64,000 bases of DNA from Nanobdellota archaeon (lineage in GTDB: Archaea; Nanobdellota; Nanobdellia; Pacearchaeales; GW2011-AR1), in assembly GCA_038045765.1 (NCBI GenBank), contig JBBSXN010000003.1:6497-70496 (forward strand). Direction: 5' to 3'. The notes below the pieces were generated by a model. The model made no database searches. It saw only the letters and a list, made by a program, of their open reading frames with translations, and had not been told where the DNA came from. Of this stretch, positions 2,764 to 32,494 are shown in pieces. Made by a program: the position numbers and the translations under genes. Each line of letters begins with the position of its first letter. Within the stretch, counting starts at the first letter, position 1.

Positions 2764-3408
2764 TTAGATATCTCTTCTTTTTTCTATTATAAATCTTGTT
2801 CCTACAAATTCAGATATTGCAGCAGTTATTATTACATTTCCTAATAACGCTTTGAATAGACCAGACATTAAAGGTATTCTTGTTTCATTAGATATCTGTT
2901 CCATTATTAAGTCTATTTCTTCTTTTGTTAGAGTGGTATTAGTTACTTGAATTATTCCACCTTTTAACACAAGAAGAGGTCTTCCAGGACCTTTACATTC
3001 TATACTTTGAACTAATCTATCTTTTAGAAATGGAGCTATTTTATTTAGTGAGGGTTGACTTTGAAGTGAATCATTTTGATTTACACTAGGAGAAAGTTGA
3101 TTTAATAAAGGATTTACTTGCATTTTTATAGGATTTATATTATTTGGGCTAATTTGTCTTACTGGATTTATAAGTAGGGGCTTCGGAAGCATCAATCTTT
3201 GTTTTTGAGATAATTGGTTAGGGATAATAACTTTCTTTTTTAATATATAGTCTCTATCTATATCAGATGTTAAGCTATCTATTTCGTGTTTTTTTATTTC
3301 TCTCATTTCAAGAGAAATTGAAAGCTCTTTTACTGCTACTAGATGATTTATAATTTTTCTAGTAAAGTCATCTATGAATCTTGTTCCTACATCTAGTTCT
3401 CTAGCCAT
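2764..3408 (-). CDS. Stand-alone homologue of the N-terminal domain of FlaI/GspE/VirB11-type secretion ATPases, lacking an ATPase domain
   Basis: C-terminal half (LNKIAPFLKDRLVQSIECKGPGRPLLVLKGG..VTNTTLTKEEIDLIMEQIS..FKALLGN..ITAAISEFVGTRFIIEKRR) parallels the segment just before Walker A in archaeal FlaI as I recall it (..ISC.G...P.FV....TN....E.D......A.LPDGSR....V..G..FTIRKF). The ORF stops immediately afterwards, abutting the convergent gene at 2763/2764. Confidence 0.4.
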   Translation of the reverse strand: MARELDVGTRFIDDFTRKIINHLVAVKELSISLEMREIKKHEIDSLTSDIDRDYILKKKVIIPNQLSQKQRLMLPKPLLINPVRQISPNNINPIKMQVNPLLNQLSPSVNQNDSLQSQPSLNKIAPFLKDRLVQSIECKGPGRPLLVLKGGIIQVTNTTLTKEEIDLIMEQISNETRIPLMSGLFKALLGNVIITAAISEFVGTRFIIEKRRDI

Positions 3409-12627: not shown

Positions 12628-13989
12628 TTATCTTAAAATATGAGTGCTTTCTAAATCTGTAATTATCTTTTGGAAACACTCGTGGCTATATTCCCAAGGG
12701 TCTGGCATAGATATGGTTTTATCGCTACTTCCATAAACTAAACTGATTCTATCCCAAGTTGAAAATTCTATTTTCCAATCAGGATTAATTCTTCTAGTTA
12801 ATTCTGTAATAACGTTATGTCTTAACAATGCTCTAGTTTTAGGAGGATTTTTCATCGCTTCAGTTATTTCTCTTCTTTCAAGCAGCTTTTCTACTAATCC
12901 TAATTCCTCCATTTGAGCAAAAATACCTTCTTCATCTAATCTGCTATAATCATATGCATTGCTTTGTACAAGAGGATGTGTATATGGAAGGCATTCTCTT
13001 TCCTTAAACTTCTTAAGGTTGGTAAATAATGTCGCCCAATCTAATCTACCATATAGAGAATTAAGATCATTACCTGCTCTTTCCAGTCTTTTAAGAGCAT
13101 CATCCCACAAATCTATACAAAAATCGACTTCTGAATCTAATCCCTTAAGATTTTTTCTTGCAGAGTCATTATATGCTCTTGCAATTTTAATTGGATCTTT
13201 CCATTCTCTTTCCGTCCCTTTTAACCTCCATGAGTCAGTCTGTTTTATAATATCTTTTATATCTTTTATTGCATATCTTTTTTTATAATTAATTTTCGGT
13301 AGCAATTCGTGTTGGTGAAGCAAGTATACAAGTCTTCTAGCCCCTCTTTTTAAGAATAATGCATATTCACACATATTTGGATCGTTGTTACTGCATTGAA
13401 TTCTTTCATAATTTTTGAACTCTCCTAGATTTTCTTCAACTTTTTCAATTAATCCTCTTTCACCTGGTCCGTTTTCATCACGGCTTGCAAAGCGGTTTAT
13501 TCTGTCTATATCTTGAGCTGATTGTGCTATTCTAAACTTTCCTTTTTGAGATAAGTGACCTGCACCAGTCCATAATTTTTCTATTATTGTAAAAAGTATG
13601 AATGGGTCTTGCTTATCCTCACTTATTGGGACAAAATAATTATCGTGAGCTCCAAAAGAATTGCTTCTTTTACCACTATCTCTTACATTCTTATAAAATA
13701 ATGGCTTATTTCTATCTCCAAAATAATCTAAAAGTAATTTTTCCATTGCTTTTTCGTAACGTACAGAATCTCTTACTGAAGCACATTCAGGAATACATAT
13801 TTCAGGATGAGCGCAATCTTCATAAATGAGACCACCATTGTTAAAAAAGCTTAAATCTTCATGCAAGACTTCCCCAATATACTTATCTCTAAAACTTGCG
13901 TAATCTACTCTTCCTTTTCTCATTTCTATTCTTTTATCTAATTCTATTCCTATCTCGATGTCTGCGCCTAAAATTATTCTAGTTTCCAT
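12628..13989 (-). CDS. PafA/Dop-family (Pup-ligase/deamidase fold) carboxylate-amine ligase homologue, copy 2
   Basis: GADIEIG; NGGLIYEDCAHPEICIPEC; FYKNVRDSG..SFGAHDNY; WTGAGHL; IAQSAQDI; NNDPNM; IDLWDDAL; LDWATLF; EITEAMKNPPKTRALLR. Confidence 0.75.
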   Translation of the reverse strand: METRIILGADIEIGIELDKRIEMRKGRVDYASFRDKYIGEVLHEDLSFFNNGGLIYEDCAHPEICIPECASVRDSVRYEKAMEKLLLDYFGDRNKPLFYKNVRDSGKRSNSFGAHDNYFVPISEDKQDPFILFTIIEKLWTGAGHLSQKGKFRIAQSAQDIDRINRFASRDENGPGERGLIEKVEENLGEFKNYERIQCSNNDPNMCEYALFLKRGARRLVYLLHQHELLPKINYKKRYAIKDIKDIIKQTDSWRLKGTEREWKDPIKIARAYNDSARKNLKGLDSEVDFCIDLWDDALKRLERAGNDLNSLYGRLDWATLFTNLKKFKERECLPYTHPLVQSNAYDYSRLDEEGIFAQMEELGLVEKLLERREITEAMKNPPKTRALLRHNVITELTRRINPDWKIEFSTWDRISLVYGSSDKTISMPDPWEYSHECFQKIITDLESTHILR

Positions 13990-14041
13990 TTAATCTAGAG
14001 AGCTTTTGTAACCTTTTTAATAATTATGTATTTAGAATATT

Positions 14042-15325
14042 TTACTTTTTAGCTTCTATCTTAGTTATATTATGCATATATGGAACTAGGACTTTTGGAA
14101 TAGTTATGCTTCCATCTTTATTTTGATTGTTTTCTAGTATAGCTACCATTATTCTAGATGTTGCTAGTGCTGTGTTGTTTAATGTGTGGACAGAACCTTT
14201 GTTTCCTTGTTTGTCTATGAATTTTATTCCTATGTTTCTTGCTTGATAGTCTGTGCAGTTTGTGAGAGACATTATTTCTCCATATTCTTTTGTTGTCGGG
14301 CGATAGACTTCAAAGTCTGCTGAACGATATTTCCAGTCTGCTAAATCTCCTGAACAGATTTCAATGATTCTATAAGGCAAATCAAGATCTTGTAGAATAT
14401 CCTCTGTGTTTTTCATTAATTCATCATATATTTTTATTGAGTCATCAGGGTGGCAGAACGCAAATTGCTCCACTTTATTGAATTGGTGGGTTCTCCATAA
14501 ACCTTTATCATTTATTCCGTGTGCTCCCACTTCTTTTCTAAAGCACATTGTGTAAGAAAAGTATTTTTTAGGCATTTCCCAAGACTTTAATGTTTGTTCT
14601 GCGTGCAATGCTAGAAGAGCTTGTTCTGAAGTGCCAATTAAATGTAGGTCTTCATCTTTTATTGAATATACTGATTGTGCAATTGCTGCTTTATCCATGG
14701 AGGCGAAGATTTCCTTCCCATGAAGCATTAAAGGCGGTTCAATGTATGTGTAGCCTTTTTTATACATAGAATCAATTGTAAATCTTATTAGTGCTTGATT
14801 TAACAAAGCTAGTTCATTTTTTAAGTAATAGAATCCTGAGCCTGAAGCTTTAGCTGATGCGTCAAAATCTGCTAAGTCTAAGCTTTCTGCTAATTCTACA
14901 TGATTCTTTATAGGAAAGTCAAATTTCTTTATCTTTCCCCATTTTTTTATTTCTACGTTTTCAGAAGCGTCTTTTCCTAAAGGCGTTTCTTTAGACATTA
15001 TGTTTGGAAGTTCAGATAACATTGAATTTATCTCTTCCATTAATTTATTTGATTTTGCTTCTACCTTTTCAATTTCTTCTGGGATGCTTTTTGCTTTTTT
15101 CAATAGTGCTTTTGCATCTTTCTTAGCCTTCATTGCCTCATTTATCTGCTTTGAAATTGTGTTTCTTTCCGATCTTAATTCATCTGCCTGGCTTTTGAGT
15201 TTTCTCCAGGAAGTATCTTTTTCAATTATATTATCAACTAGCTTTAGCTTTGGAGTTTGTGCTTTTCTTTTTATGTTATTTATTACTATTTCAGGATTTT
15301 CTCTTATTAGCTTTATATCTATCAT
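14042..15325 (-). CDS. serS: Seryl-tRNA synthetase
   Basis: N-terminal coiled-coil arm; class-II motifs (GTSEQAL, FRKEVGAHG, RTHQFNKVE, YGEIMSLTNCTDYQARN). 427 aa. Confidence 0.9.
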   Translation of the reverse strand: MIDIKLIRENPEIVINNIKRKAQTPKLKLVDNIIEKDTSWRKLKSQADELRSERNTISKQINEAMKAKKDAKALLKKAKSIPEEIEKVEAKSNKLMEEINSMLSELPNIMSKETPLGKDASENVEIKKWGKIKKFDFPIKNHVELAESLDLADFDASAKASGSGFYYLKNELALLNQALIRFTIDSMYKKGYTYIEPPLMLHGKEIFASMDKAAIAQSVYSIKDEDLHLIGTSEQALLALHAEQTLKSWEMPKKYFSYTMCFRKEVGAHGINDKGLWRTHQFNKVEQFAFCHPDDSIKIYDELMKNTEDILQDLDLPYRIIEICSGDLADWKYRSADFEVYRPTTKEYGEIMSLTNCTDYQARNIGIKFIDKQGNKGSVHTLNNTALATSRIMVAILENNQNKDGSITIPKVLVPYMHNITKIEAKK

Positions 15326-15346: not shown

Positions 15347-15354
15347 TATTTAAA
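15347..15354 (-). promoter_or_regulatory. TATA box (TTTAAATA on minus strand), 29 nt before serS ATG 15325
   Basis: Exact consensus and spacing. Confidence 0.65.
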
Positions 15355-15357
15355 TGT

Positions 15358-15441
15358 AAAGGAACTTGACCAAAACTTAATCCTAAAGGACAGAGTTCCT
15401 TTATCATCCTAAAAACTAGTGCTTTGCACATAGTTTTTCTG
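15358..15441. repeat. Intergenic hairpin pair; the second hairpin is a diverged copy of the one at 17967-18007
   Basis: aaaggaact(27 nt)agttccttt, then catcct-aaaaacta-gtgc-ttt-gcac-a-tagttttt-ctgat. Compare catcc-aaaaaacga-gtgc-tttat-gcac-a-tcgtttttt-gat. Confidence 0.6.
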
Positions 15442-15506
15442 ATGTTAATTTCAGGCAAATTTAAATAGATACAATCAATTTCAATTATACTAAAGAGGCA
15501 AATAGT

Positions 15507-16129: not shown

Positions 16130-17833
16130 TTATTCAAATGCAGATAAATCTTTTCCTTTTCTTAGATTTGCAAAGTGTTCTTTCCCTATCTTTTCATATA
16201 TCTTTTTTGATGTTCCAAACTTCTCTATTAAATGCGAGGCGTAATCTCCCCCTAAGTGATGAGGTACTATTACATAATCAATTCCATTTTTGTAAAGATT
16301 TAATGCAGTCCTAGGTTGTTCTGCTGTCGCTATAAATGCGGCTTTGCTATTAATCTCTTTAAGAGTTTCTTTTATAGCTATATTTGCATCTTCTTGAGGA
16401 ATTGTAGATATGACTAACTTCGCTTTTTCAAGGCCTATTTCTGAGAGGAAATTTCTATCGCTTGCATCTCCATAAATTGCCTCTATGTTTTCTTTGTTTA
16501 ATGCAATTATAACTTTAGGATTATAGTCAATTACAACAACTTTAGCATTCATTTTTTTCAAAGATTGAATTACTTTATATCCTATTCTATGATATCCAAA
16601 AACAAAAACTTCATATTCTTTTTTCTTTTCTTTATTATCTATTCTATGATGTTTAGCTTCAAAAATACTAAGTAGGTTAGATAACTTGCTAAAGATGTGA
16701 TGTGAATAATATATGTTATAGCTGCTTATACCTATAGTTATTACTGCAATTAGAACTAGGAGACTCATCATTTCCTGATTTAGGTGCCCTAGGTTGAATC
16801 CAAGTAGAATTAGTATAAGCGAGAATTCAGAGACTTGTGCTAGGCTTGAGCTTGTTAAAAAGTTAGTTCTTTTTGTATATCCGAATAATTTCAATACAGA
16901 CATAATTATCAGAGGTTTTCCTATAATTATAAAAGTTGAAAATATTAATGCAGTTTTTATTAGTGAAGGAGTTATTGCTTCTGCTAACTGGCTTCCAAAG
17001 AATACGAAGAATAAAACCATAAAGAAATCTCTTAAAGGCTTCATCTTTCCTCCAATTTCTAGAGTGTATTTTGAAGAAGCTAAAGACATACCAGCTATTA
17101 ATGCGCCTATTTCAAGAGAAAATCCTAGATAATCAAATAGAGCAGCTAAAATTAAGGCCCAGGCAATTCCAAATAGAAATAGTCCTTCCTGATTTTTAGC
17201 CAAGTACCCAAGCATTCTTTCTTGTAAGAAACTTGTTACAAAAAATATAATTGCTATTAAACCAATTATTATTCCTAGTTTTTGAAATATTAATATAACT
17301 GAGCTTCCTTTTTGTATAAGGGGAACGGCCATTAATGCAATTGCAGCTACTAAATCTTCTACAATTAAAATACCTAAAGTAAGTCTTCCATGTAATGTAT
17401 CTATTTCTTTCTTATCTGCCAGTATTTTAACTACAACTACTGTTGAAGAGAAGGCAATTGCAGCTCCAAGATATAGTGCAGTTGTATTTTGGAATCCAAT
17501 TGCTGTTGCTATGAGGAAACCTATTCCACCAGTAAGAGCTATTTCTACTAATCCTGCAAGTGTCGCTACTTTTCCTACTTCTTTCATAACTCTGAAGTCA
17601 AGGCTTAATCCTACAATGAATAAAAGAAATGCAACGCCTATATGTGAGAATACCTGCAATAGACCAGTTGTTTCGTTCGCAGGTCCTATTAAATTAAATG
17701 CAAGAGGACCAACTAAAATTCCTGCAATTAAATATGCAATAATTGGGGGCTGTTTTATGAGTCTCGCAAACACAGTTAACAGTGCAGAAATACTAACGAT
17801 TAAACTAATGTAAAGCAACACCTCTTGAGCCAT
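16130..17833 (-). CDS. Kef-type (CPA2) cation/proton antiporter with C-terminal TrkA-N (RCK) domain
   Basis: About 12 TM helices followed by the Rossmann-like VFVFGYHRIGYKV..VVVID. Start set at ATG 17833 (track starts at TTG 17839). Confidence 0.75.
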   Translation of the reverse strand: MAQEVLLYISLIVSISALLTVFARLIKQPPIIAYLIAGILVGPLAFNLIGPANETTGLLQVFSHIGVAFLLFIVGLSLDFRVMKEVGKVATLAGLVEIALTGGIGFLIATAIGFQNTTALYLGAAIAFSSTVVVVKILADKKEIDTLHGRLTLGILIVEDLVAAIALMAVPLIQKGSSVILIFQKLGIIIGLIAIIFFVTSFLQERMLGYLAKNQEGLFLFGIAWALILAALFDYLGFSLEIGALIAGMSLASSKYTLEIGGKMKPLRDFFMVLFFVFFGSQLAEAITPSLIKTALIFSTFIIIGKPLIIMSVLKLFGYTKRTNFLTSSSLAQVSEFSLILILLGFNLGHLNQEMMSLLVLIAVITIGISSYNIYYSHHIFSKLSNLLSIFEAKHHRIDNKEKKKEYEVFVFGYHRIGYKVIQSLKKMNAKVVVIDYNPKVIIALNKENIEAIYGDASDRNFLSEIGLEKAKLVISTIPQEDANIAIKETLKEINSKAAFIATAEQPRTALNLYKNGIDYVIVPHHLGGDYASHLIEKFGTSKKIYEKIGKEHFANLRKGKDLSAFE

Positions 17834-17883
17834 AAACAATTTAGCAATATGTGTTTTAAATAGCTTTTTATAGGCAGTAATTT

Positions 17884-18078
17884 TTTATTTATGTCAAGAA
17901 CTTATGGTTCTTGAGCACAGAAAATCAGTAGATTTTCTGGTCAGGAAAATAGCAGGTATTTTCCTGCATCCAAAAAACGAGTGCTTTATGCACATCGTTT
18001 TTTTGATATCATATTCATCCCGCTTTGGCTGGGATGGAAGAGCCCATCGCTCGCGGCGCGGTGGGCTCACTTCATTTT
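17884..18078 (+). ncRNA. Candidate ~190-nt structured RNA: six consecutive hairpins ending in a T-run (strand and identity uncertain)
   Basis: A perfect TTTAAATA box at 17855 predicts a plus-strand start near 17884. Hairpins at 17895-17913, 17918-17939, 17942-17966, 17972-18003, 18016-18036 and 18040-18068. TTTT at 18075-18078. Confidence 0.35.
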
Positions 18079-18125
18079 AATTATGAGTTAAAAAGATTTA
18101 AATAGGAATGATTTTGAGAAATATT

Positions 18126-18458
18126 ATGAGCAATTTAAGAGCACCTTATCATGGGCCTATGAAATTACCTTATGGTTTAGTTGTGGAAACTGCTTTAAAC
18201 CTTTTTCGTATTAATCGTACTAACGAAGTTAGATTTGAGAGAGTAGCAGGTACCGACCTTTTGTATAATGCTTATTATCTGTTACCTAATAATGATAGAC
18301 CTACTACTTCTGGCTTTGATTTAGTAGCTGTTGCTCACGGTGGCGATGATTTAGCTACTAAGCTAGATTCTTTAACTAATCTATCTAAGAAACCTAGTTT
18401 AAGAGTTGTAAGACCAAACCTAAAAGAAACTTTATTTGCAATATTTAGAGAAGAATAA
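18126..18458 (+). CDS. Hypothetical protein
   Basis: ORF-track start 18108 lies only 4 nt after TATA box TTTAAATA (18097-18104). ATG 18126 is exactly 29 nt from that box. Confidence 0.5.
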   Translation: MSNLRAPYHGPMKLPYGLVVETALNLFRINRTNEVRFERVAGTDLLYNAYYLLPNNDRPTTSGFDLVAVAHGGDDLATKLDSLTNLSKKPSLRVVRPNLKETLFAIFREE

Positions 18459-22348: not shown

Positions 22349-22382
22349 CTTTATTGGTGTAAGATGTAATAGTTCTTTCAAT

Positions 22383-22436
22383 GTCAAGATTTAGTAAAAT
22401 CTTGAACACTAGAAAATCTAATAGATTTTCTGTGAC
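22383..22436. repeat. Two-hairpin module, second copy of the module at 17893-17944
   Basis: atgtcaaga-ttt-agta-aaa-tcttga-acact-agaaaatc-taata-gattttct-gtgac versus atgtcaaga-ac-ttatg-gt-tcttga-gcac-agaaaatc-agta-gattttct-ggtca. Confidence 0.7.
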
Positions 22437-22472
22437 AATAATACTTATATAATCTATTTATTGAGTAGGGAA

Positions 22473-24212
22473 ATGATTAGTTTAATTGCAGGTGTTGCTA
22501 AGAATGGAGTTATTGGAAATAAGAATGAATTGCCTTGGCATATAAAAGAGGATTTACAGAGGTTTAAAGTTTTGACCCTTGGAAAACCAGTCATTATGGG
22601 GAGGAAAACTTTTGAGTCTATAATCATGGTGCTTGGAAAACCTTTACCTGGAAGGACAAATATTGTAATTACTACAAATCCAAATTATAAATTTGAAGGA
22701 TGTGTTGTTTGTAATTCTATTGGAGATGCTTTGAAAAAAGCCAAGGAGATAAGCAGTGAAATTTATGTTATTGGTGGACAGAAAATTTATGAGCAGACTA
22801 TTAAATTAGCTGATAAATTGGAGATAACTTCCGTTCATAAAAACTATGAAGGAGATGCTTATTTTCCTAAGATAGATGAATCTTGGCAGGAATCAAAGAG
22901 AGAAGATAAAGATAGTAATGGCATAACGTTTAGTTTTATTACTTATGAGCGAAAAAAGAGTAAGAAAATTGTTGGTAAGAGTTTGAAGGATGTTGATTTT
23001 GATTCTTATATTTTGATAAGAAAAGAAAAAGAGAGACAGCAGAAAACAATAAATTTGATTCCTTCTGAGAATTATGCTTCTGAAGCAGTTATGGAGGCTA
23101 GTGGAACAAGTTTGATAAATAAATATGCTGAAGGTTATCCTCATAAGAGATATTACCAAGGAAATAATGTTGTTGATGAAGTTGAAGATTTAGCTATTGA
23201 AAGAGCTAAAAAGATATTCGGTGCTGAGCATGTTAATGTTCAGTCTTATTCTGGAAGTCCTGCTAACTTTGCAGTTTTCTTAGCTTTATTGCAGGCAGGA
23301 GATAAATTTATGGGGCTTGATTTAGGATGTGGAGGTCATTTGACTCATGGAAGTCCAGTTAATTTTTCAGGACAGATTTACAAGCAAATACCTTATACTG
23401 TTGATAAAGAAACTGGCTTATTGAATATGAAAGAGATTAGGGAAATAGCTTTAAGAGAAAAACCTAAAATGATTATTTCTGGATTATCTGCTTATCCTAG
23501 AATTGTTGACTTTAAAGCATTTCAAGATATTGCTGAAGAGGTTGGAGCAGTTCATCTTGCTGATATTTCCCACATAGCTGGATTAGTTGCTGCTGGAGTC
23601 CATCCAAGCCCATTTCCATTTACAGATGTTGTTACAACTACTACTCATAAGACTCTTAGAGGGCCAAGGGGAGCAATAATAATGTGTAAGGAAAAATATG
23701 CAAAGCAGATTGATAAGGCCGTTTTTCCAGGATGTCAGGGAGGACCTCATATGAATTCAATTGCTGCTAAGGCTGTTGCATTTAAGGAAGCTTTAAGTGA
23801 TGAATTTAAGGAATATGGTCAGCAGATTGTTAAAAATGCAAAAGTTCTTGCCCATACTCTTTCTAAGAATGGAATAAAATTAGTTACTGGTGGAACTGAA
23901 AATCATCTTATTTTAGTTGATTTAAGAGATAAGGGAATTGGATTAGGGAAACAAGTTGCTGTTGCTCTGGAAGAAGCAGGTATAGTCTTGAATGCAAATT
24001 CAGTTCCATTTGATACTTCAACTCCATTCAAACCGAGCGGAGTAAGACTTGGGACACCAATGGTTACAACTAGGGGAATGAAAGAAAGTGAGATGGAGAA
24101 GATTGGAAATTGGATATCTGCTATTATAAGAGATGTTAATAATTCAGAGCTTAAAGCAGCTATAAAGAGAGATGTTGAAGAGTTGTGTGCTAAGTTTCCG
24201 ATTTATAATTAA
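22473..24212 (+). CDS. folA-glyA: Fused dihydrofolate reductase - serine hydroxymethyltransferase
   Basis: N-terminal ~165 aa carry DHFR motifs ([43 protein letters not shown]). After a KKSKK linker comes a full SHMT ([60 protein letters not shown]). Start set at ATG 22473 (track uses TTG 22461). Confidence 0.85.
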
Positions 24213-32218: not shown

Positions 32219-32494
32219 CTATTCCAAACCAAATAACTCTGTGAAGTTTGATATCATCCTATACTTTTCAAGATATTCATTACCTTTTTCTGTTATTGAG
32301 TATGTTTTATTTTTTCCATCTATCTTTTCAGATACAAATTTCTTATTCATTAATTCTGTTAGATAGATTTCCATCATTATATGTGAAAGATTGGATTTGT
32401 ATAAAATATGGGTTGGTTTTATCTTTCCATTTTTTGATTTTATGACTTCCAGTATGTCTTTTATTATTTCAAGTTTTGTTCTTTTTTTGTTCAT
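32219..32494 (-). CDS. Small winged-helix DNA-binding protein
   Basis: 91 aa; KLEIIKDILEVI.....IKPTHILYKSNLS......YL.EL.....V...........Y.ITEKG..YL is the pattern of archaeal wHTH proteins. Overlaps the upstream membrane gene by 4 nt. Confidence 0.55.
   Translation of the reverse strand: MNKKRTKLEIIKDILEVIKSKNGKIKPTHILYKSNLSHIMMEIYLTELMNKKFVSEKIDGKNKTYSITEKGNEYLEKYRMISNFTELFGLE

Follow-up and report, generated by a model that had tools for sequence, protein, structure and literature searches.

The closest known kinds of element to the hairpin array described here are the palindrome-associated transposable elements (PATEs) and small mobile repeats (SMRs) of haloarchaea, and the REP/REPIN repeats of bacteria. 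PATEs occur in Haloquadratum walsbyi and other haloarchaea and are derived from IS200/IS605-type transposons, and SMR-A and SMR-B are small mobile repeats of Haloquadratum (Dyall-Smith et al. 2011, PMC3119063). The array lies at positions 17891-18007 of a 64,000-nucleotide (nt) stretch of contig C3 of a Nanobdellota archaeon; the whole of that stretch is called the window below. An earlier note on this DNA had described the array as four perfect hairpins in a gap between divergent genes, and had offered three readings of it: a modular small-RNA family, a REP-like or MITE-like (miniature inverted-repeat transposable element) palindromic element, or cruciform-type regulatory DNA. The comparisons presented here indicate that the array is probably a compound, non-autonomous mobile DNA element, inserted at the start of a small RNA gene; this judgement does not extend to the enzyme that moves it. 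The assembly of the host genome (G000) comprises 880 kb in 7 contigs, with 32% G+C, and is 86% complete.

The hairpin array and its family

The array consists of two unlike terminal hairpins, A and B, with a module of two further hairpins nested between them. All parts are given as read on the plus strand, and the stems are taken directly from the sequence.

17891-18007, plus strand: copy W2 of the putative mobile hairpin element, made up of H1 to H4; defined by filled and empty sites and by the family architecture, with bounds uncertain by a 2-nt AT at both ends
17891-17917, plus strand: hairpin A (H1), the conserved 5' terminal hairpin, ATG-TCAAGAAC-TTATG-GTTCTTGA-GCA
17895-17901/17907-17913, plus strand: H1, the stem of hairpin A
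17918-17967, plus strand: H2+H3 module, nested as an insert (about 52 nt) within the GCA/TCC linker of A and B, with a bound ambiguous by a 2-nt CA
17918-17926/17931-17939, plus strand: H2
17942-17951/17957-17966, plus strand: H3
17968-18007, plus strand: hairpin B (H4), the conserved 3' terminal hairpin, ATCC-A6-CGAGTGC-TTTAT-GCAC(A)TCG-T7-GAT
17972-17984/17990-18003, plus strand: H4 (hairpin B) stem, extended to 17968-18007, with one bulged A

The four hairpins were located where the earlier note had placed them. Two more, GC-rich hairpins (18015-18037 and 18040-18068) bring the series to six, but these belong to a separate entity, the small RNA gene discussed below. Hairpin B is flanked by an A-run and a T-run, and thus resembles a two-way oligo-T terminator. 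The region folds far more stably than shuffled sequence, in answer to a check that the earlier note had proposed: for 17880-18090, a fold energy of -87.1 kcal/mol was obtained, compared with -47.7 +/- 4.6 kcal/mol in shuffles (z = -8.6; minus strand, z = -9.4), and the array region is in the top ten of 14,621 windows of 120 nt from the host genome when these are ranked by folding. The same note had asked if such palindromes are expected by chance, and this proved to depend on stem length. Single perfect 7-base-pair (bp) hairpins are at chance level (484 in the host genome vs 444-495 in Markov controls), whereas stems of at least 9 bp are enriched two- to three-fold (138 vs 45-71). Since lone 7-bp hairpins occur at the chance rate, the non-random signal resides in the clustering of the hairpins and, above all, in the recurrence of the family.

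The best-folding windows of the host genome include several sequences of the same build as the array. The genome-wide search suggested in the earlier note revealed about 19 copies in the host genome, every one of them intergenic. The family core reads (T)ATG-TCAAGrwwy-loop-rwwyCTTGA-GC-ATCC-A-run-(inner stem)-T-run-GAT. Within it, the 5' hairpin A has the form ATGTCAAG-stem-CTTGAGCAT, the 3' hairpin B has the form ATCCAAAAAAC...GTTTTTTTGAT (ATCC-A-run-stem-T-run-GAT), and the canonical A-B linker is CTTGAGCATCC. In many genera, every copy starts at ATGTCAAG and ends at TTTGAT, and conservation stops directly after ...TTTGAT in all copies, the ends of the element being fixed to within 2-3 nt. 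The TGTCAAG...CTTGAGCATC portion is conserved across the order, while the distal stem of hairpin A covaries. Copies are 50-310 nt long and free of open reading frames (ORFs), including all 20 inspected in high-copy genomes, and they are ~70-94% identical to one another.

The shortest copies (53-65 nt) are composed of A plus B and nothing else. Long forms carry an extra hairpin in the loop of A (TTGACAGAAAACC-stem-TTTA-stem) and another in the loop of B (TATCAAACC-stem), and the spacing between arms, taken up by loop or insert, ranges from 3 to >40 nt across copies. The H2-H3 module is present in 3 of the 19 host copies (in the window, at C5 50403 and at C2 110432), and H2 occurs without H3 at 22410-22432. 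Two paralogous copies in the host genome differ at 11 positions, 10 of which fall within two inner hairpins, with pairing kept. Nine of the 19 copies are situated between tandem genes and half in divergent gaps, next to genes of unrelated functions. Two further copies are present in the window.

15354-15443, plus strand: copy W1, a diverged full copy, ATG-TAAAGGAAC...GTTCCTTTA-TCATCC...CTGAT; defined by filled and empty sites, with a bound ambiguous by a 3-nt ATG
22381-22433, plus strand: copy W3, truncated, with hairpin A and an H2-like hairpin and no hairpin B; defined by filled and empty sites

These copies account for the recurrences that the earlier note had reported: the lead-in ATGTCAAGA and H1-like and H2-like hairpins were found at 22381-22433, and the H4-like hairpin at ~15405-15441 turned out to be part of the diverged full copy. 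All three loci are in divergent settings, as the note had stated, namely the serS/orf205, Kef/orf116, and thyA/DHFR-SHMT (dihydrofolate reductase-serine hydroxymethyltransferase) gaps. A 9/9 co-orientation of copies in divergent gaps with the downstream gene was discarded, as it would be true of any element there.

Filled and empty sites

Orthologous regions were compared in genomes of the same genus and in metagenome contigs (L-numbered), and all three window copies were found to be matched by empty sites in close relatives. At W2, the window and the 99%-identical strain L048 are filled, ...TTTTTATAGGCAGTAATTTTTTATTTAT[GTCAAGAAC...TTTTTTTGAT]ATCATATTCATCCCGC, with the element in brackets, and L036, L037, and L050 (Kef protein 83% identical) are empty, with ...TTTTTATAGGCTCAAATTTTTAATTTCTA joined directly to ATCATATTCATCCCGC (also written ATCATATTCATCC...). 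The W1 site is likewise filled in the window and in L048, TTTAA[ATG]TAAAGG...CTG[ATG]TTAATTT, and empty in four relatives (L050, L036, L037, and L052), which read TTTAAATGTTAATTT, the joint being that between TTTAAATG and TTAATTT. W3 is lacking at the corresponding site of L048, although that strain is 99% identical, and also of L052; L050 and L036 are filled there with the same hairpin A, joined head-to-head to a second A-like hairpin. A fourth comparison comes from outside the host: G007 is filled, TATCAT[GTCAAGG...CTTCTGAT]ATTCATTAC, and its close relative G003 is empty, with TTCATCAT joined to ATTCATTAC, the insertion point in G007 being 5 nt from that in the window. Across the four filled/empty comparisons, junction identity amounts to just 2-3 nt (AT, AT, ATG), and there is therefore no target duplication longer than 2-3 nt; a 2-bp AT duplication would also fit.

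Two other loci were followed by exact-protein look-up. At the proteasome locus, the other strain was also filled, and at the PCNA locus, a gene-order break was found beside the element, not a clean empty site. Host C5 ~32315-32460 and contigs L189-L191 encode an identical PCNA protein with a different upstream neighbor gene, and the break is ~10 nt from the 3' end of the element copy.

Copy number varies widely within the genus: G003 has 0 copies, G007 and G006 have 1 each, G001, G002, G004, and G005 have at least ~5-8 each, and G000 has ~19, with distal stem sequences that are specific to each genome. A strict family pattern run on 301 genomes of the order (122 genera) gave matches in 23 genomes and 15 genera, and the reversed pattern, run as a control, gave 0. 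In a scan of 185,579 species, matches were filtered by stem extension and by the presence of a hairpin B ending in TTTTGAT, the two features by which a true family member is defined. True members were confined to Woese-/Pace-/Nanoarchaeota assemblies; ~60 bacterial matches were without stem extension and without hairpin B, and were set aside as chance. Judged by these sequence scans, the family is found only in Woese-/Pacearchaeota-type (GTDB Nanoarchaeota) DPANN archaea. Copies also appear to have crossed genus boundaries, in that the copy at C3 125206 is 94% identical to one in G182, a member of another genus whose seryl-tRNA synthetase (SerRS) is 68% identical, but only 91% identical to its own paralogue. 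The filled and empty sites, the variable copy number, and the near-identical copies across genera all favor the REP/MITE-like palindromic element among the three readings of the earlier note.

Comparison with described mobile repeats

The element resembles PATEs in many respects. It is too short to encode a transposase, has palindromes at or close to its two termini (hairpin A begins 1-3 nt in from the left, and hairpin B runs up to the right terminus), generates no target duplication, and occupies strain-specific sites. Its copies vary around a conserved short terminal oligonucleotide, and other small repeats are nested inside. As in PATEs, terminal inverted repeats are lacking, the ends ATGTCAAG and TTTTGAT not being reverse complements, although some head-to-head A/A' variants do have inverted ends. 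Some of the differences concern geometry: the outer hairpins are at the very ends of the element, compared with 20-50 bp inside in PATEs, and IS200-like inner hairpins are limited to the long forms. PATEs have a conserved 5' target of 4-5 nt. The 5' flank of the element is T-rich, and TGTCAAG is preceded by an A in all 16 of 16 unselected copies; this A may belong either to the target or to the element.

SMRs are similar in being short and ORF-free, in causing no target duplication, and in often being found inside other repeats, as are the H2-H3 module and the inner hairpins here. They differ in having terminal inverted repeats and >95% identity, whereas the A-B form of the element has unlike ends and ~70-94% identity. 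Bacterial REP/REPIN/BIME repeats, which RAYT, a Y1 HUH transposase, mobilizes, are also short intergenic palindromes with a conserved lead-in of a few bases, doublets and mosaics, compensatory pairing, and dozens of copies per genome. In contrast to these, the host of the element is archaeal and each unit combines two hairpins, A and B, that are unlike each other. A single-copy RAYT gene with copies at its flanks was looked for and not found, the sole Y1-like ORF of the host (C6 3030-3311) being unflanked. The palindromic elements of Rickettsia and classical MITEs are likewise small, strongly folding, gene-less repeats of reduced genomes; a point of contrast is that all 19 host copies lie between genes. 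Neither of two hallmarks of classical MITEs, a target duplication and terminal inverted repeats that link them to a DDE transposon, is seen in the element, and assignment to this class was rejected on the unlike ends, the lack of a duplication >2-3 nt, and the failure to find a parent transposon.

DNA palindrome or RNA

The earlier note had inferred compensatory changes from two loci and had proposed a statistical test of covariation. The covariation is real. In a set of 70 distinct hairpin-A sequences, Watson-Crick pairs fill 261 of the 280 cells given by four variable stem positions, compared with a mean of 130 and a maximum of 161 when partners were shuffled. Covariation of the stems is, however, equally expected of a DNA hairpin element. 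Mismatch types and strand symmetry were informative in this regard. Among the same 280 cells, G-T occurs 6 times and A-C 5 times, and when 41 full copies were folded on both strands, neither strand was favored (mean difference +0.63 +/- 2.8 kcal/mol; 38 vs 34 G-U pairs). The adjacent small RNA (18008-18078), used as a positive control, has 22 G-U cells and 0 A-C cells.

Promoters were scored with a matrix trained on 667 genes of the host genome. Host promoters, as derived from the regions upstream of 667 ORFs, consist of a purine-rich B recognition element (BRE) that spans -36 to -31, counted from the ATG, followed by a TATA box (TTTAWAAA) between -29 and -22; going by this spacing, the host is an archaeon with mostly leaderless genes. 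With this matrix, no promoter was found at a fixed distance upstream of the copies: the best same-strand matches are spread from -63 to +22 and have modest scores. The two good promoters near copies belong to downstream small RNA and tRNA-Ala genes. An apparent cluster of same-strand matches at ~-12 from the element was rejected, as it represents the near-palindromic TATA box of the divergent neighbor. No Rfam family matches the element; only two tRNAs in the window reach the gathering score, and the best sub-threshold match in 17750-18200 has E = 0.05. The absence of a strand bias in G-U vs A-C mismatches and of an own promoter indicates that the element is a DNA palindrome. Either selection for hairpin formation or template-switch correction of quasi-palindromes may be what keeps the arms perfect, and the paired differences between the two paralogous host copies fit either.

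The insertion target

The site into which W2 appears to have been inserted contains the following features.

18008-18078, plus strand: conserved small RNA gene, GC-rich and with two hairpins, lying outside the element (H5 18015-18037, H6 18040-18068, T-run 18075-18078)
17857-17874, plus strand: predicted promoter with BRE and TATA box TTTTTATA (17866-17873), matrix score 6.2 in both alleles
17855-17862, minus strand: predicted TATA box of the Kef antiporter gene, TTTAAATA (minus-strand reading TATTTAAA), matrix score 6.7, predicted start at the Kef ATG, 17833

At least 9 relatives, whether or not they carry the element, keep the small RNA upstream of rpsJ, the gene for ribosomal protein S10. 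Compensatory changes were observed in 12 of its 19 base pairs, and its loops contain invariant UGGC and CGCGGCG sequences. No Rfam family corresponds to it, and inspection revealed neither C/D nor H/ACA boxes. On this record of conservation and pairing, 18008-18078 is a real conserved small RNA. Between it and rpsJ, the window has a 110-amino-acid (aa) ORF (18126-18458, plus strand) with no Pfam match. This ORF is missing from the 99%-identical L048 and from all relatives inspected, where rpsJ is directly 3' of the small RNA, and it looks like a strain-specific insertion.

Comparison of the two alleles suggests how the element is placed with respect to transcription. In the empty allele, the best promoter (TAAATAGCTTTTTATAGG, score 6.2) predicts a start at the A of ATCATA, which is the conserved 5' end of the small RNA, ATCATATTCA. 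In the window allele, the same promoter predicts a start at ~17894 (TCAAGA), within the first bases of hairpin A. Because one promoter starts at the RNA 5' end in the empty allele and in hairpin A in the filled one, the element is placed at the predicted start of the small RNA. No other promoter was found between ~17894 and the small RNA in the window allele; with only the ~17894 promoter preceding it, the RNA would now be made only by read-through of the array and of the T7 of hairpin B. The earlier note had taken TTTAAATA at 17855 for a plus-strand box from which a transcript of the whole array could be launched. This box is the minus-strand TATA of the Kef gene and does not serve that role, but an array-spanning plus-strand transcript is plausible from TTTTTATA, with a start at ~17894. 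It is also plausible, from the position of this start, that such a transcript is a displaced 5' leader of the small RNA and not a gene of the element. In the proposed mechanism, the small RNA promoter would fire into the element, the array would form a transcribed leader at the 5' end of the RNA, and hairpin B, through its T7 run, would act as a partial stop for the leader transcript.

A second copy in the host genome has a comparable position. The copy at C5 195675 (region 195640-195860) lies between a TATA box and tRNA-Ala and ends 4 nt before the mature 5' end; given this placement, the tRNA must be transcribed through a hairpin array ending in T7. In G298 and G115, copies are found 0-6 nt from tRNA ends. 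Overall, 5 of 51 copies are within 50 nt of a tRNA, compared with ~5.5% expected, an about two-fold difference that is not significant (p = 0.15). The element adjoins the same small RNA in G000, G007, and the Woesearchaeote contig L069, and the insertions in G000 and G007, which are independent of each other, are within ~5 nt of the small RNA start. These positions, with the recurrence at L069, hint at start-site targeting, in which the element would insert preferentially into melted DNA at the start sites of highly expressed stable-RNA genes and travel as a processed-off 5' leader. Such targeting is unlikely; the tolerance of stable-RNA genes to leader insertions could explain the start-site pattern without it. 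A different hairpin insert, with bounds ATGTCA...TGACAT, was observed at the same spot in L056, a metagenome contig whose Kef protein is 72% identical. The site upstream of the small RNA is suggested to be a hot spot for more than one hairpin element.

Mobilization

By analogy with haloarchaeal PATEs, an HUH/Y1 (IS200-type) transposase acting in trans might move the element in the form of single-stranded hairpin DNA, in a peel-and-paste manner. This proposal is a tentative one, somewhat more doubtful than probable. It is prompted by the inner hairpins of the long forms (AGAAAACC-ACACAC-TTTA-GTGTGTGG), which resemble hairpins flanking a Y1 transposase subgroup in G012 and G032 (L034, L035) and which are ~20 nt inside each end, as in IS200/IS605. 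Among 41 relatives, Y1 genes were found in 6 of 10 element-bearing genomes vs 6 of 31 others (p = 0.02). The linkage to Y1 transposases is nevertheless weak. None of the Y1 loci inspected has anything that corresponds to the outer hairpins A and B or to the terminal oligonucleotides.

Several observations weigh against mobility in general or against this route in particular. The Y1 association is not significant across the 301 incomplete assemblies (9/22 vs 67/279, p = 0.07), and no Y1 gene is seen in the highest-copy genomes G298, G182, G105, and G115, which are incomplete assemblies as well; all compared genomes are incomplete metagenome assemblies, a kind of data in which insertion sequences often fail to assemble. 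The host genome has just a degenerate Y1-like ORF, on the small contig C6, the genus lacks TnpB, and the search for an IS605-type parent gave none with matching ends. No autonomous, ORF-bearing copy was present in 20 regions of the four highest-copy genomes, and viral contigs contained no copy, the 61 matches there all being due to chance. The geometry is unlike that of IS608, as the outer hairpins A and B are terminal and not subterminal, and the short forms, which are dominant in the host genome, lack the IS200-like inner hairpins. The junction identities of 2-3 nt (AT, ATG, CA) would also fit microhomology-templated insertion, the order-wide conserved ends could reflect a cellular function, and at least 2 copies (W2 and C5 195675) are predicted to be transcribed.

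Contig C6 (3424 bp, 36% G+C) is possibly of extrachromosomal or viral origin. Its Y1-like ORF (3030-3311, 55 bits), which seems to lack a full HUH motif, is accompanied by short hypothetical genes. A second palindrome family, TAAAGATTTG-nnnn-CAAATCTTTA, was observed in the host genome at C5 200634, 202017, and 313978, and also in L033 at ~1231. Hairpins akin to it are found directly upstream of an intact Y1 (IS200-type) transposase gene in G002.

Alternative explanations

One alternative is that each copy is the gene of a small structured RNA, the RNAs forming a trans-acting or protein-binding family with a 5' hairpin, variable modules, and a 3' terminator hairpin. Strong stem covariation and ends that are conserved across the order would be expected of such genes, as would the terminator-like hairpin B with its T7 and a fold z-score of ~-9, and good promoters do predict a start at the first bases of the element for W2 and C5 195675. 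Those two promoters serve the downstream small RNA and tRNA-Ala, however, and none is placed at a fixed distance from the remaining 17 copies. Even strains that are 99% identical differ in the presence of copies with exact bounds, and congeners have 0 to ~19 copies; G-U is no commoner than A-C and both strands fold equally, unlike the neighboring real RNA, and there is no Rfam match. An RNA family is thus decidedly unlikely, and the modular small-RNA option of the earlier note is set aside on the same promoter and strand-bias results and on the failure of positions to be kept between relatives. Its third option, cruciform-type regulatory DNA, found no support. Double-stranded palindromes acting in divergent promoter regions as cruciforms or as sites for dimeric regulators would account for the nearness of the hairpins to BRE/TATA elements of neighboring genes, but arms separated by 3 to >40 nt are unfit for a fixed dimer site, the neighboring genes are functionally unrelated, and relatives have empty sites, which makes this reading very improbable. 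The hairpins are almost certainly not chance palindromes of AT-rich DNA: perfect 7-bp hairpins do occur at the chance rate in the host genome, but a fold z of ~-9 does not, and the family recurs where the control pattern gives 0 matches in 301 genomes.

Two further readings concern what the element does or how it spreads. It could be, or could have become, a cis-acting cellular module, either a two-way oligo-T terminator/insulator or an attenuating 5' leader of stable-RNA genes. The A6-stem-T7 of hairpin B gives a T-run on either strand, 9 of 19 copies are between tandem genes, where a terminator is needed, two copies are between a promoter and a stable-RNA gene, and three assemblies (G000, G007, and L069) have the element immediately before the same small RNA. 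Such a module is quite unlikely in view of the close relatives that lack it at the same sites, the lack of any copy in most genomes of the order, the half of the copies that are in divergent gaps with nothing to terminate, and a conserved hairpin A for which it provides no role; it can be compatible with a mobile origin, and does not replace it. Alternatively, copies may have spread without a dedicated transposase, by replication template switching or by microhomology-mediated templated insertion between palindromes. Junctions that share just 2-3 nt (AT, ATG, CA), the perfect arms, and the lack of a partner enzyme in our searches are in keeping with this, but the constant ends, ATGTCAAG and TTTGAT, in many genera point to enzyme-recognized termini, and near-identical copies are found in different genera; spread of this kind is accordingly regarded as rather improbable. 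A compound, non-autonomous mobile DNA element thus remains the preferred reading of the array.

Other features of the window and host genome

At host contig C4 ~13930-14130, a copy of the element lies within a segment of ~190 nt that has the 16-nt sequence ATTATGCCCGTGCCGG on either side as a direct repeat. This sequence is a duplicate of the 3' end of the adjacent, probably intron-containing, tRNA gene, and the segment looks like a scar of integration into the tRNA. In the window, the gene divergent from thyA beside W3 (22461-24212, plus strand) encodes a 583-aa fusion of dihydrofolate reductase (PF00186) to serine hydroxymethyltransferase (PF00464), and is kept in relatives, with 95-99% identity in L036 and L048.

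Implications

DPANN archaea have tiny, tightly packed genomes that are usually described as poor in mobile DNA. A widespread family of transposase-less hairpin repeats explains many of the intergenic signals in DPANN assemblies that look like structured RNAs, and should be masked before searches for non-coding RNAs. In the present case, counts of G-U vs A-C and two-strand fold energies separated a DNA palindrome from a real RNA side by side. The family also supplies strain-level insertion markers and shows movement of genetic material between DPANN genera. If start-site targeting were true, the element would be an archaeal counterpart of the eukaryotic elements that target Pol III genes. W2 and the tRNA-Ala copy, finally, pose the question of whether archaeal RNA polymerase can read through a 116-nt hairpin array that ends in T7.

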